NCBI GenBank assembly: GCA_046482545.1
Contig: JAWOEX010000021.1
Coordinates: 64,001-128,000, forward strand
Direction: 5' to 3'
DNA length: 64,000 bases
Source of the DNA: Candidatus Thorarchaeota archaeon
Lineage (GTDB): Archaea > Asgardarchaeota > Thorarchaeia > Thorarchaeales > Thorarchaeaceae
Shown piece after piece: positions 4,225-34,482 of this stretch. The position numbers and the translations under genes are program-made. Within the stretch, counting starts at the first letter, position 1; each line of letters begins with the position of its first letter. Under the pieces are notes generated by a model, which ran no database searches, was not told the DNA's origin, and saw nothing but the letters and a program-made list of their open reading frames with translations.

Positions 4225-4358
4225 AAGCAAAAAGGTGGCGACCACGCGATCGTGGTAGGAGGGGGGAGTTTCGTAATTGAGGGCATGTAACGAAAAACTA
4301 GACGCGTGATCGCCTCAATTCATTCATGCCATTCCAACTACGTTTTCTTTCCTATCAC
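4225..4358 (-). ncRNA. Putative small structured RNA, copy 1
   Basis: 52-nt core (4252-4303) identical to copy 2, enclosed by 12-bp stem 4237-4248/4303-4314 whose single C-A on + is G-U on -. U-rich 3' tail on the minus strand; TATA-like element at 4382-4389. Confidence 0.7.
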
Positions 4359-4634
4359 GAATTTTGTATACCGCCGACTTCTTATTAAACTTCCGATTGT
4401 AGACTAGTTTAGTAGACTTTAACTTCTATGGAACTCGGTTACTCTTTCGAAGTATCAAGTCTGAGTTTTTTGGTATTCGAAAATATTGGGAAAGAAGATG
4501 CATGAAAGTCTACAAAAGCGTAACCAAAGTCGAAGCCAGAAGAACTTCTAGAGGCATAGAAGGTGACGAGTGCGCGGATATAGTGGTAGGAGGGGGGAGT
4601 TTCGTAATTGAGGGCATGTAACGAAAAACTAGAC
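4252..4634. repeat. Perfect 52-bp direct repeat, two copies (4252-4303 and 4583-4634)
   Basis: GTGGTAGGAGGGGGGAGTTTCGTAATTGAGGGCATGTAACGAAAAACTAGAC occurs twice, 331 bp apart. Confidence 0.95.
4376..4395 (-). promoter_or_regulatory. Probable BRE/TATA promoter of small RNA copy 1
   Basis: Minus strand CGGAAG-TTTAATAAGAAGTC; the 13-mer TTAATAAGAAGTC is shared with copy 2 at an equivalent distance from the predicted 5' end. Confidence 0.6.
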
Positions 4635-4684
4635 CACGCACTCGCCTTGTTTATTCGTCATACCCTATGTTTTCCACCAATCAC
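4555..4684 (-). ncRNA. Putative small structured RNA, copy 2
   Basis: 52-nt core (4583-4634) enclosed by 13-bp stem 4565-4577/4634-4646 of different sequence from copy 1; two A-C/C-A on + are G-U on -. Same promoter motif at 4701-4713. Confidence 0.7.
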
Positions 4685-7944: not shown

Positions 7945-10900
7945 ATGACCGAGTTGCCAAAACGATACTCCCCAGTCGAAGTCGAGCATGAGATACTTAA
8001 GTTCTGGAAGGAAAATGATATCTATCAGAAGACAGTAGATTACAGGAAATCTGGACCTCGCTGGAATTTCTTGGAAGGCCCACCCACTACAAACGGCTTC
8101 ATGCATGTAGGTCACGCTAGGGGACGCGCGATGAAAGACGCGCAGTTACGCTACATGACCATGAAAGGATACAATGTGTGGAGACGAGGGGGTTGGGACA
8201 TGCAAGGACTCCCTGTTGAACTCGAAGTAGAAAAGAACGAAGGCATTGCAGAAAAGGGAGAAATAGAATCTGCGATGGGTCTTGACCAGTTTGTTCAGAA
8301 ATGCAAAGACCTTGTAGATTACTATCTTGAGGGATGGGTGGAGGATTCCAGACGGTTAGGTCTTTGGCTCGATTACGAGAAAGCCTACAAGACGAGACGG
8401 GATGATTACATAGAGCATGTGTGGCATTTCCTGAAGCTTGCTAGTGAAGAGGGATTGCTGGGAAGAGGCTACAGAGTCAATCCGATATGCCCAAGATGTG
8501 TGACTGCGCTTTCCGGTCACGAGGTATCACAAGGCTATCAGACAAAAACAGACCCTTCGATATATGTCAAATTCAAAAGAAAGGGGACAGAAAACGAGTA
8601 CCTTGTGATATGGACAACTACTCCCTTTACCATCATATCAAACGAGATGGTATCTGTCCACCCAGAGTATGATTATGTAAAAGTGAAAGTAGATGACGAG
8701 TACTGGTGGCTCGTTGAAGATTTAATGGATACAGTTCTCGAAAAGGCAGGCATCAAAGATTTCGAAATAGTTGAGAAAATAGGGGGTGATGAAATGCTCG
8801 GGTGGAAATACGAGCATCCATTCGAAGACGAAGTCGAGTGGCACCAAAACCACAACGAGCAATACATGCATGCGGTTGTGACAGGCAGGCATGTTACCGT
8901 TGATGAAGGTACAGGGCTGGTTCATACTGCGCCTGGTTTTGGACCCGATGACTTCGACATAGGACAGGAATTTGGTGTACCTGTTTTTTGTCCAGTTACC
9001 AAACAGGGACGGTTTACTGACGAAGTTCCCATGTTCGAAGGGAAATACGTTTTCGATACAAATGATGTCGTTCCAGAGCAGCTGGATGAAAAAGGCCTAC
9101 TGCTTCATCAAGAGACCGTAGACCATGAATATCCTCATTGCTGGCGATGTGATACCCCCCTAATCTATCTAGCAGATAATACCCAGTGGTTCCTCAAGAT
9201 GAGGGGAGTACGAGAAAGACTTGTTGAAAAGAACCAAGAAATCGAGTGGACACCTGGATGGGCAGGCTCAGGACGTTTTGGCGATTGGGTGGCAAACGCT
9301 GATGACTGGTGCATATCGAGATCTAGAGTGTGGGGATCACCACTGCCAGTATGGGTTTGTGATGAATGTCAGGAAGAGTCGGTTATAGGTTCACGGAAAG
9401 AGTTGAGAGAAAAAGCAGTCGAATTTCCTGAGGAATTCGAAATGCATAGACCTTGGGTTGACAAAGTGTTGCTCGAATGTCCTGAGTGTGGAGGTGTCAT
9501 GCACCGAGAAAGCTTTGTCACCGACTGTTGGCTTGATTCAGGCATGGCTCATTCTGCTAGCGTGGATTATCTCAGTGATGAAACACTATTCCCTGAACTA
9601 TTCCCCTATGATTTTATCACCGAAGCTGTCGATCAATCAAGGGGCTGGTTCTACAGCCTCCTCTATACTGGAGTAGTAATGCATGGAGAAGCTCCATTCC
9701 AAGCTTGCGTAAGTCAGGGACATGTTCTCGATGAACACGGAGGAAAGATGAGCAAGTCAAAAGGAAATGTCGTATGGGCTGAAGATGCCTTCGAGAATGT
9801 TGGTGCAGATCCATTTAGGATTTTCATGCTAAGCAGGTCAGCACCTTGGACAAGAGTCAATTACAGCACGAAGGAAGTCAATCACGTAACAAAGCGACTT
9901 GATATTTTCTGGAATGTTTTCCTCTTTGCGGAGACGTACATGGACCTCGATGAGTTTGTATACAATGAGGAGCGTATGCTTTCTGGTCTTTCAAATGCCA
10001 AGCTGGAGGAGAAATGGCTTGTATCACGAGTTCAAAGTGTCCTTAGTGAGTTCCATGGATATATGAACGAATATCTCTATCATCATGCCTCTCGGGTGCT
10101 CCTTGATTTCATAACAGACGATTTGAGCAGGGTGTATTTACCACTAGTGAAGAGAAGAGTCTGGTTAGAAAGTGATAACCCTGAGAAGCTGATGACGTAC
10201 GATGTTCTGTTTTACACACTACAAACAATGCTGCATTGCATCAATATATTCACTCCCTATCTAGCCGAGAAACTGCATCAAGATTTCCTGATGAGGTTCT
10301 CTAAGAATCAGCCAGAGTCAATTAACATGACAGATATGCCAGAGGTTGATGAGTCCTATCTGGATCAAGAACTTGAAGCCACCTTTGATGTTTTAGAGGA
10401 GCTCCGTTCCGCGGCCAGTCACGCACGCAACAAGAGCGGAATAAAACTCAGGCACCCTGTGAAGAAGGTGATGTTTGTTCCTGCATCCGAAGATGCAGCG
10501 GAAAGAGCTAGAAATCTTCATGAGATACTCTTGGAGGATTTGAACACAAGAGAATTCGAAGTCATTGACCCAGAACAGGCATCCCAATTTGTTGAGCTAG
10601 AAGCAGACCCCAACTATGAGAGCCTTGGCCCCAAGTTCAAAGGAAAGACAGACGCAGTGGTAGCCGCTCTAACAGAAGCAGATGCTGCCAATCTGAAGAA
10701 GGAATTCGACAAGGGAACAGCCAGCCTAGAAGTAGATGGCGAGAAAGTTAAACTTGAATCTACTGATGTGACCTTCCGTGAGGAACTGGTTGGTAAGCTA
10801 AGCAGTTCAGATAGCAGAGTTGGAACAGTCTACGTGGATAACACACGAACGAAAGAACTTGAAGCTGAAGGTCTGGTCCGTGATGTGACTAGAAGAGTAC

Positions 10901-14946: not shown

Positions 14947-15726
14947 CTATTTGCTGGCTACCACAACAATTCGTTCGGAACTTGCGCTATAAGGCATCTT
15001 TGGCATCTTATTCGAACCATAGAGCTCAGTTTTCTTGAATCCAATATCCTCAAGCATTGTTTTGATTTCAAGTGCGCTGTAGATGCGGACATTATTGTTC
15101 GCCAAGGCATCCTGATTCATCGATATGAGTCGGTTTCCTTCAATATCAATGAATGTTGCTGGCTTTCCTCTCAGCACACTTGAAGCTGCATCAAGGGTGT
15201 GCGGCCGACTGAGGAGATATCCGCCATCGAGTTCGGTCCAAGTCTGTTGGAAATCTGGTAGGTTATATGGGTTGAGCAAATCGAGAAGCAAGTGTCCATC
15301 TTCAACAAGTCCATCGAAGGATCCTTGCAATACCCGTTTGTTCTCTCCATGATCGAAGAAGCCGAAACTGTGGCTTAGCAGTACTGCAGCATCAAACTCA
15401 TCTTCGAATTCCATTTCACGCATATCACCAACATGGAAATCGACTTTTACGGCTTGCTGTTTTGCACTCTCCTCGGCGACTGAGATTAGAGTCTCTGAAA
15501 GGTCAAATGCAGAGACTTCCAAGTTTCTCTTTGCGAACTTAATGGCATGATTTCCAGCACCGCAGGCTATATCAAGAACTCTGTTACCTTCTTGCAAATC
15601 CATAACTTCAATGCAGAACTCGGCCAGCATCTCATCATATTTTTCGATACCCTGAATAGAATTCCTGTGTTTCACACGGAAGATTTCCGCCCAAAATTCG
15701 TCCCAGCCAAGCTCTATGTGTTCCAT
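14947..15726 (-). CDS. Class I SAM-dependent methyltransferase
   Basis: VLDIACGAGNHA, FDLS, GDMR..F.DEFD, SFGFF; start at MEHIEL. Confidence 0.9.
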   Translation of the reverse strand: MEHIELGWDEFWAEIFRVKHRNSIQGIEKYDEMLAEFCIEVMDLQEGNRVLDIACGAGNHAIKFAKRNLEVSAFDLSETLISVAEESAKQQAVKVDFHVGDMREMEFEDEFDAAVLLSHSFGFFDHGENKRVLQGSFDGLVEDGHLLLDLLNPYNLPDFQQTWTELDGGYLLSRPHTLDAASSVLRGKPATFIDIEGNRLISMNQDALANNNVRIYSALEIKTMLEDIGFKKTELYGSNKMPKMPYSASSERIVVVASK

Positions 15727-15937
15727 AGGAGTCAACCGACATAGATTGTGCCTGCCAGAGAAATATGAAGCTTTGCATGAAAACAATCCTATGTAAAAAG
15801 TCAATCAAGAGGCAAAAAGCAGGAATACTCTAATTTCTGAAATGCCGAATTCAGAAATCATTATTCCTTCTTATGACAACACATATTCGTAGCCACAGAC
15901 TCATCACACAGGTCTCATGAAAACAGTCAGAAGAATT

Positions 15938-16037
15938 TGGTGGAGATCTCCCGTACCTGTTGCTCTTCGCCGGGAGGGACGTAGATATACCAACAGGAGA
16001 CTTGTCAATTAGCCTCTTTGTACGGGATTATTTCTCC
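15938..16037 (-). ncRNA. Putative 100-nt three-way-junction RNA with tRNA-like 3'-ACCA
   Basis: Helices GGAGA/UCUCC-ACCA, UCCCGUA/UACGGGA, AGGCU/AGUCU and CCUGUUG/CAACAGG; TTTATA box 24-29 nt upstream (16061-16066). Confidence 0.6.
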
Positions 16038-16211
16038 AGTTACGTATAACCAATAAGACCTATAAACCTATAGATTTTCGCTAAATTGATAGAAATATTC
16101 TAACAATATTTGTTTTTTTATGGGTTTTCTTCTTGTATATATTAGGAAATATACTATTTGATTTACAAAGCCAATCTGAGTCCGATAAAGTTGATAGCAG
16201 AGAGAAAGAAA

Positions 16212-16287
16212 TGGTAGCCCCGCCAGGATTCGAACCTAGGTCAGCGGGACCAGAACCCGCCATGCTGGACCACTACACCACGGGGCT
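16212..16287 (-). tRNA. tRNA-Gln(CUG), CCA genomically encoded
   Basis: AGCCCCG..CGGGGCU-ACCA acceptor with the A1-U72 pair typical of archaeal tRNA-Gln; anticodon arm GCGGG-UUCUGGU-CCCGC; GGUUCGAAU T-loop; 76 nt. Confidence 0.97.
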
Positions 16288-33571: not shown

Positions 33572-34482
33572 AGTTTAGCTTGTGACGAGCTGCCTTTGCT
33601 AGCAACTTCGACAAGAACAAGAGCAACACCAAAAAGAATAGTACAAAACCATAGGGCAGTAGTGGGATGGGGGGTTTCGCCTAGGAATAGCATGGCAAGA
33701 ATGGTGGCACCAATCGGCTCACCGAGTACTGCTGCTGAAACAACATAGGCAGGCACAAGGGTCAGCAGATAGTTGTTCACAGAATGACCAAGAGCGGTGG
33801 GGAAGATAGCCAAAGCGAGAAAGAGGATTACTTCGGTCGGCTCCAGTATCAAGATATCTACGCCTGCAAGAAACGAGAAGATGAGTGTTACAATGGCTGC
33901 TGTGAAGTATACAACCGAGGTGTAGACTGAAACAGGCAAGCCTCTGGCATATTTGCGTCCACCTATGAAATAGAGAGCAAGGAAAACAGCGCCAAATAAA
34001 GCTAGAAGATCTCCAAGTAATGCACTCCCGCCAACCAATTCGAAGTCGTTCCAAGCGAGCATAACTGCACCAACTACAGCTATGACTATTCCAGCCCACG
34101 ACTTCTTGCCAAGTTTTTCATTCAAGACAAAAGTGGAGAGAATGGCTGTGAATATCGGTGCTGAATCAACGAGAACAACGCTGGCGGCCACTGTGGTTAG
34201 AAACAATGACGTGAACCAAGTCGAAAAGTGAAGGCTTAGCACAACTCCGATGATAACGAGCCACTTCCAGGTTTTTTTCATTTTGTCGCTCTGATATTCT
34301 GCTGTCTCACCCCTGAAAACAGCCAATCCTGCCATGAGGATGGAGCCATAGAGTGTTCGCCAGAAAACGATGGCCAACGGTGGTGAAGTGCTAAATCTAA
34401 TCAGGATGCTGGCACTCGAAACCATTGAAACTGATAACACCAGAAGGAGAACTATCCTGACAACATCTCTTTCCTCCCTCAC
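33568..34482 (-). CDS. DMT/EamA family transporter
   Basis: About 10 TM helices in two EamA repeats; GDLLALFGA, EPIGAT. Confidence 0.9.
   Translation of the reverse strand: MREERDVVRIVLLLVLSVSMVSSASILIRFSTSPPLAIVFWRTLYGSILMAGLAVFRGETAEYQSDKMKKTWKWLVIIGVVLSLHFSTWFTSLFLTTVAASVVLVDSAPIFTAILSTFVLNEKLGKKSWAGIVIAVVGAVMLAWNDFELVGGSALLGDLLALFGAVFLALYFIGGRKYARGLPVSVYTSVVYFTAAIVTLIFSFLAGVDILILEPTEVILFLALAIFPTALGHSVNNYLLTLVPAYVVSAAVLGEPIGATILAMLFLGETPHPTTALWFCTILFGVALVLVEVASKGSSSQAKL

Follow-up and report, generated by a model that had tools for sequence, protein, structure and literature searches.

A Structured Small RNA Gene of Thorarchaeota with an Invariant Loop Complementary to the Shine-Dalgarno Region of an Unlinked mRNA

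In the Firmicutes, the C-rich-loop small RNAs (sRNAs), namely RsaE/RoxS, the hairpin loops of S. aureus RNAIII, and Listeria LhrC, aim an unpaired UCCC-type motif at the Shine-Dalgarno (SD) sequence and thereby block initiation (PMC2790875; see also PMC4132741). The alphaproteobacterial cuckoo sRNAs are composed of 2 to 4 adjacent hairpins, each with CCUCCUCCC (PMC4615179). Among archaea, M. mazei sRNA41, sRNA154, and sRNA162 act in trans and mask ribosome-binding sites, sRNA154 by way of a loop (PMC5867862). Our literature searches turned up neither a regulatory sRNA nor an sRNA-target pair described from Asgard archaea. The Asgard archaea are the lineage closest to eukaryotes, and to our knowledge the targets of archaeal sRNAs are known in just a few cases. 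CopA/CopT and RNAI/RNAII are plasmid cis-antisense RNAs, and trans-encoded type I antitoxins (IstR-1/tisB) guard hydrophobic toxin peptides. Here we analyze an RNA encoded in a Thorarchaeota genome (G000), within a 64,000-nt stretch of DNA referred to as the window. The covariance models of the named Rfam families RsaE/RoxS, LhrC, and cuckoo gave no match to this RNA, which is designated family A. Its parts and neighbors, in window coordinates, are as follows.

15938..16037, minus strand: small RNA gene, family A, about 96 to 100 nt; fold z of -4.77, homologs in 78/86 family genomes, covariation; ends placed from sequence
16061..16066 (read 16066-16061), minus strand: TATA box, TTTATA (usually TTTATAGG), 24 to 29 nt upstream of the RNA
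16037-16033 with 15946-15942, minus strand: P1 terminal helix GGAGA/UCUCC, followed by ACCA (15941-15938), which is not conserved
16027-16021 with 15955-15949, minus strand: P2 helix UCCCGUA/UACGGGA; 7/7 pairs changed on both sides, 93% of cells paired
15998..16015, minus strand: P3 side arm AGGCU/AGUCU, variable in length and sequence
15956..15997, minus strand: apical arm, with P4 CCUGUUG/CAACAGG (15997-15991 with 15962-15956), an internal loop, P5, P6, and a tip loop
15981-15978 with 15971-15968, minus strand: P6, with tip loop CCUCCC at 15977-15972, from fold prediction
15968..15978, minus strand: putative targeting segment, containing the invariant CCUCCCGGC (15977-15969)
15925..15937, minus strand: pyrimidine-rich trailer; U/C-rich tracts follow the helix in most homologs
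16212..16287, minus strand: tRNA-Gln(CUG), a conserved upstream neighbor separate from the RNA (ARAGORN, Rfam)
15763..15774, minus strand: TATA-like element of the methyltransferase gene (14947-15726), which travels with that gene, 14 to 953 nt from the RNA end

The TATA box and the helices reported in a preliminary description of this locus were all found in place on the minus strand, the first nucleotide of the RNA (G1) being 16037. The minus-strand fold has an energy of -37.3 kcal/mol (z = -4.77), and 0 of 200 shuffled sequences folded equally well; the plus strand of the same segment was unremarkable (z = -1.17). Of the 59 distinct homologs, 54 had fold z scores under -2 and 58 were preceded by a TATA-like hexamer, and the distance from the start of the box to G1 was 28 to 30 nt in all 15 homologs measured. 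Both arms of the three-way junction described earlier are present, but the AGGCU/AGUCU arm is variable, being short or lost in some family A homologs and absent from a sibling family, D. The 28-nt loop assigned to the other arm is not open; the segment folds further through UCU/AGA and CGUC/GGCG helices and exposes just the 6-nt loop CCUCCC. In an alignment of 61 sequences, which was fitted to the model so that the result leans favorable, 84.5% of the cells assigned to pairs were paired, compared with 77.3% in shuffles and about 44 to 51% with slid partners, and both-side changes were seen at 16 of the 23 pairs of the family A fold, including all 7 of P2. Compensatory changes thus keep the closed helical scaffold intact. 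The sequence CCUCCCGGC was unchanged in 59/59 homologs, and in the predicted folds CUCCC was unpaired with a probability above 0.7 in every one of them. Because CCUCCCGGC is invariant even where its 5' stem partner changes, it appears to be kept as sequence, which points to recognition by sequence. The true 3' end probably lies at or just past the terminal helix, within the pyrimidine trailer, and this trailer probably serves as an archaeal terminator.

Searches against known RNAs were negative. Rfam gave no match at the gathering score and none over the RNA at E values up to 10, and, as had been expected, the sole find of ARAGORN and Rfam at the locus was the neighboring tRNA-Gln(CUG). A protein-coding reading of the RNA core was ruled out by indels of 1 to 2 nt inside the core, and a divergent SRP or RNase P RNA was rejected in view of the presence of both those genes elsewhere in the genome. 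An archaeal H/ACA guide RNA was rejected on the basis of the tails, which are mostly ACCU, AUUU, AAAU, ACUC, or CUUC, and the lack of conserved tandem GA pairs; a Y RNA (Ro60 RNP) was rejected because the Ro60/TROVE gene (PF05731) had no match in G000, a 99%-complete genome in which the search controls were positive. A possible likeness of the core to a stretch of human 7SK RNA was dropped in view of its low complexity and the lack of an Rfam match. Among metatranscriptome contigs listed from four assemblies, with patchy cover, none spans 15938-16037. By sequence criteria, the locus is an uncatalogued, stand-alone structured small RNA gene of Thorarchaeota (Asgard archaea).

When 185,579 species genomes were scanned for an exact pattern, 45 matches were returned, most of them labeled Candidatus Thorarchaeota and, apart from three weak bacterial ones, the others carrying other Asgard or unnamed archaeal labels. 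The three bacteria-labeled matches reached just 16 to 25 bits, in two cases solely across the 22-nt pattern, and were not counted as homologs; no viral copies were found by exact pattern. With a covariance model, the RNA was detected in 78/86 Thorarchaeaceae-level genomes (22/23 of the good ones), nearly always as a single copy. Two genomes missed by the model, G054 and G017, have clear homologs at the same locus, so that family A is present in all 16 genera. In other Asgard families, among 151 genomes, the covariance model did not find the RNA, an absence that is soft, as the same model missed the true homolog of G025, from the sister family, and barely scored that of G017. A palindrome in the promoter of some homologs occurs once in G000 and hence does not define a regulon.

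To find sites that the invariant seed might recognize, we scanned the 86 family genomes for its complement ahead of start codons. The scan returned one recurring gene and context, the leader of a gene for an 89-aa hypothetical protein. The loci concerned, together with those of sibling family D, are the following.

G000, contig C9, 64163-64429, plus strand: candidate target gene, 89 aa; outside the window, unlinked, single-copy, with its own TATA box
L263, 2164-2430: locus of the 89-aa protein family, which has a run of methionines at the start in Thorarchaeia
G000, contig C41, 3102-3166, minus strand: family D sibling sRNA, 54 to 68 nt, a shorter rod with the same seed; also at L166 and L348-L371

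The genome uses SD signals, with an SD-like 4-mer ahead of 522 of 1342 starts compared with 138 in a control window, and the tail of its 16S rRNA is GAUCACCUCCU. The leader of the 89-aa gene forms a short hairpin with the loop GCCGGGAG, and the complement covers the SD sequence GGAGG, which ends 9 to 14 nt ahead of the annotated AUG. The element GCCGGGAGG was found in 61 of 63 orthologous leaders, and the other two keep 8/9 positions; as controls, the best 9-mer was conserved in 10/61 methyltransferase leaders and 3/9 EF-2 leaders. By both run length and energy the 89-aa gene start ranked first of 5648 start regions in G000, a specificity check rather than an independent discovery, as the target was found with the seed itself. 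In G000 the RNA and leader form 11 contiguous Watson-Crick pairs, with an A.C mismatch at one flanking position that is shared by several other genomes, and contiguous pairing ranges from 9 to 15 bp across 61 genomes. Both 5-nt seeds are predicted to be open, with opening costs of 0.01 and 0.04 kcal/mol, and after opening costs the predicted 11-bp family A duplex nets about -13.4 kcal/mol, and that of sibling D -11.9 kcal/mol. Ribosomal, SRP, and RNase P RNAs were also considered as targets and rejected; the best run was 9 nt with two G.U pairs, in 23S rRNA, and was judged to be at chance level. On these comparisons, the seed has a conserved complementary site over the predicted SD sequence of an unlinked mRNA. 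Family D, whose model matches 19/26 family genomes sampled, lies near the alanyl-tRNA synthetase gene in the loci checked, and in some genomes it fits the target leader better than family A does.

The 89-aa protein is single-copy, and across genera its identity to that of G000 is 57 to 71%. No Pfam family matches it, and databases name it a hypothetical protein. The wider family is unannotated and basic and was found in many Asgard families (177/400 genomes searched, with two copies in some). There are also 36 distant clusters. A structure model (pLDDT 78) showed a helix, a strand meander, and a long helix, a predicted soluble charged alpha/beta fold. Searches with this model returned nothing at E <=0.001 in Foldseek and Atlas matches below 0.8; with VIA-align the best Z was 7.9, to the Med17 C terminus, followed by the T4 MotA C-terminal domain at Z 5.5 to 5.7, and no match reached Z >=8; none of these matches was drawn on as evidence. 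Separately, paired RCGTKTAC boxes sit on either side of the 89-aa gene's TATA box (contig C9, 64076-64125) and occur again about 2.3 kb away, past a neighboring geranylgeranyl-reductase-like gene (66398-66445 and 66552-66590). Three of the four close RCGTKTAC pairs in the genome lie in this 89-aa/geranylgeranyl-reductase region, and the boxes are possibly an operator set.

The two partners were also compared across genomes. G025 has just four CCUCCCGGC sites. One is the target leader, and a second lies between the locus of tRNA-Gln and EF-2, where an inverted 66-nt RNA with a TATA-like box has the same outline (z = -4.56). The flanks have changed on both partners in this genome, the RNA reading GUGG...AA and the leader UU...CCAC, and the cognate pair forms 15 Watson-Crick pairs, compared with 8 to 10 when the G025 RNA was set against the leaders of 11 other genomes. 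In G016 the cognate run is 13, against 8 to 11 for noncognate pairs. Some changes involve the sibling RNA: in G070 sibling D has a C-to-U change that matches a G-to-A change inside the 9-mer of the leader, and the sibling D RNA of G015 pairs with the leader over 15 bp. In G052 and G070 the leader change is unmatched in family A. On the RNA side, all changes inside the 9-mer are C-to-U, with pairing kept by wobble (G007, G016, G069, and G070). Cognate pairing exceeded shuffled pairing at the genus level (p = 0.005) but not clearly without G025 (p = 0.08), values to be read with the facts that kin are not independent and that the covariation signal between the partners leans on few events. All 14 orthologous loci checked in other Asgard groups lack a complementary site, and the models found no RNA in those groups. 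The two sequences co-occur by lineage. The co-evolution of the RNA loop and the target leader appears credible from these comparisons.

We propose, with a probability of roughly 0.7, that the RNA is a trans-encoded antisense sRNA that blocks translation of the 89-aa gene by loop-loop pairing. The RNA would be transcribed from G1 without 5' processing and would end in the pyrimidine tract. Its open C-rich loop would kiss the open GGGAG loop of the leader, and both weak apical stems would then melt to give a duplex of 10 to 15 bp located 9 to 14 nt upstream of the annotated AUG. Such a duplex would hide the SD sequence from the 16S tail, and translation of the 89-aa protein would be repressed.

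Complementarity itself gives neither the sign nor the direction of regulation, and further targets are possible. The same pairing might instead open the leader or protect the transcript (activation or stabilization), or the mRNA might act as a sponge that titrates both sRNAs away from other SD-led mRNAs. These outcomes fit all of the complementarity evidence just as well, part of the SD sequence is already hidden by the leader hairpin itself, YYGGGAGG-type sites precede the starts of about 14 other genes, and M. mazei sRNA154 both stabilizes and represses targets (PMC5867862). However, the duplex spans the whole GGAGG and should block the 30S subunit, and when SD masking was examined genome-wide, starts were not enriched for strong pairing (34, versus 27 coding controls, below -14 kcal/mol). 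We regard such outcomes as unlikely.

We find it quite improbable that the shared 9- to 12-mer is read by a protein, either as a double-stranded DNA operator at both loci or as a C-rich loop bound by an RNA-binding protein. Apparent complementarity and joint change at the two loci would be expected of a DNA site as well, and the invariance is unusually strict. Nevertheless, it is the C-rich strand that is transcribed in two sRNA families, the mRNA has the G-rich strand, and both lie in the open loop of a conserved hairpin; the site is about 60 nt downstream of the sRNA start; and the RNA-side changes inside the 9-mer all preserve pairing by wobble.

The preliminary description had read the locus as a tRNA mimic, with the terminal helix and ACCA forming an acceptor-like end for RNase P, tRNase Z, the CCA enzyme, or a synthetase. 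In this genome the RNA does have a GG-opened 5-bp helix followed by ACCA, an A follows the helix in most homologs, and the gene adjoins a tRNA gene. The accompanying statement that the RNA is not itself a tRNA was borne out by ARAGORN, Rfam, and the alignment, there being no cloverleaf, 7-bp acceptor, T-loop, or D-loop, features whose lack also speaks against mimicry. ACCA follows the terminal helix in just 3 of about 60 homologs, all of them in the genus of this genome, the others having ACCU, AUUU, AAAU, ACUC, CUUC, etc., running into pyrimidine tracts, whereas CCA is encoded by about 34 of 36 plausible tRNA genes of G000. Moreover, the SRP RNA and RNase P RNA of this genome end in a helix followed by ACCU or ACUU; since these RNAs end likewise, a helix followed by A-C-C/U is a general end signature here. 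The TATA spacing sets the start at G1, which would fit a primary start better than one made by RNase P cleavage. With CCA not conserved, the suggested maturation by tRNA-processing enzymes was not supported, and the mimicry reading is very improbable.

The surroundings of the gene bear on whether it is independent. The usual order is tRNA-Gln, the RNA, a SAM methyltransferase, and EF-2, and some genomes have inserted genes on either side; the spacing from tRNA-Gln to the RNA ranges from about 130 to 1230 nt. Because of these inserted genes, the methyltransferase's own TATA-like element, and the absence of the methyltransferase from the RNA locus in G015, the RNA is best described as its own gene, neither a leader nor a decayed tRNA. 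A cis leader or riboswitch of the methyltransferase, or a tRNA/att remnant, outcomes that the preliminary description had named as grounds for abandoning its reading, is thus scarcely plausible: the methyltransferase does follow within about 70 to 210 nt in most genomes, and one tRNA gene has twelve nucleotides of the core within its 3' half, but the methyltransferase can be up to about 950 nt away with open reading frames between, the RNA is inverted relative to EF-2 in G025, decay would not leave helices that covary and a seed that is invariant throughout the genera, and a 12-mer match is calculated to occur by chance about 0.4 times per genome.

The preliminary description had also grouped this RNA with two RNAs at 4225-4684, here called family B.

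Window 4235 to about 4360 and 4561 to about 4690, minus strand, with a third copy at G000, contig C24, 24090-24190: family B RNAs, in which a 53-nt core is the same in many genera of Thorarchaeia

These proved to be real conserved RNAs, present in 83/86 family genomes in one to nine or more copies and also in the sister family; they were not found in the other Asgard genomes searched. They have their own TATA box, and their 5' hairpin is variable. Families A and B have an outline in common, with a TATA box, a closed helix, ACC, and C-rich loops (two of these in family B), but there is no detectable homology between them and the seed is not shared, so that a single functional class is plausible but unproven. 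The family B sequence CCUCCUAC exactly matches the 16S tail together with the bases that follow, and in several homologs the G-rich 5' hairpin could pair with an internal AUGCCC loop; a target search for family B in G000 returned nothing above 10 nt. An adapter-bounded metatranscriptome insert, 4235-4348, from a single contig, ends near the predicted 3' end of one family B RNA and was set aside. At L135 (G002, contig C166, about 1366-1581), a family B copy has two hairpin insertions inside the otherwise invariant core, and at L128 (G024, contig C106, about 8290-8500), the region downstream of tRNA-Gln has a family A copy truncated at its 3' end and, tail to tail with it, a divergent copy of family B. 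Other observations concern the 16S and tRNA genes of G000. Two 16S gene pieces (contig C2, about 790-830, and contig C33, about 33620-33660) have a hairpin insertion of about 27 nt just ahead of the conserved ACTTAAAGGAATTG; the C2 piece has a second insertion near its 3' end, and the two pieces differ at many sites. The insertions are possibly introns or expansion segments. ARAGORN also called a tRNA-Sec gene at contig C34, 60819-60909.

Only tentatively, and as something we consider doubtful as a whole, family A and its sibling may be the RNA arm of an undescribed Asgard switch, in which the 89-aa protein, as a new DNA-binding regulator (in view of the paired RCGTKTAC boxes at its own TATA box and at the neighboring geranylgeranyl-reductase locus) or a new toxin, would be under two trans-encoded kissing-loop RNAs. 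These would belong to a larger set of C-rich RNAs with closed helices, among them the ultraconserved multicopy RNAs at 4225-4684. The pair offers a named candidate target, a predicted duplex of 10 to 15 bp, and natural compensatory variants, which make it testable without culturing Thorarchaeota. It would also single out an unannotated 89-aa family, found in many Asgard groups, as one under tight transcriptional as well as translational control.

Compared with known systems, the RNA shares with bacterial Y RNAs (YrlA type), mascRNA, and the tRNA-like domain of tmRNA a terminal helix that joins the ends and, with Y RNAs, a pyrimidine-rich loop. Unlike the tRNA-like RNAs, it has no T-loop, D-loop, or conserved CCA, and no Ro60/TROVE gene accompanies it. 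As in kissing-loop antisense systems, the hairpin loops of the two partners are complementary, the upper stems are weak, and the target is a dedicated mRNA for a small protein. Here, however, the RNA is unlinked, and, in contrast to the hydrophobic peptides that type I antitoxins guard, the target is a charged 89-aa protein predicted to be soluble and alpha/beta, with no Pfam family and no fold match at Z >=8. The M. mazei sRNAs are unrelated in sequence and lineage and were found by experiment in one genus, whereas the Thorarchaeia pair is known from sequence and is conserved across the family and sister family with compensatory changes. As in the cuckoo RNAs, the loop ends in CCUCCC, a partly anti-SD motif, and the stems vary by compensatory change; unlike them, the RNA is a branched rod with a single apical CCUCCC loop, and its invariant segment extends into GGC. 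The likeness to the Firmicutes C-rich-loop sRNAs lies in an unpaired C-rich motif in the most conserved part, directed at the SD sequence, and in sibling copies. The differences are the lack of sequence or Rfam homology, the archaeal TATA promoter, ends closed by a terminal helix with no terminator hairpin, and one ultraconserved, structured candidate target with a near-perfect predicted duplex of 10 to 15 bp in place of many loose targets. The features found, namely, its own promoter and terminator-like trailer, an unpaired conserved C-rich motif, and a complementary site over an unlinked SD sequence, are those of the functional class; as judged from sequence, the RNA works like the C-rich-loop SD-targeting sRNAs yet belongs to none of their families.
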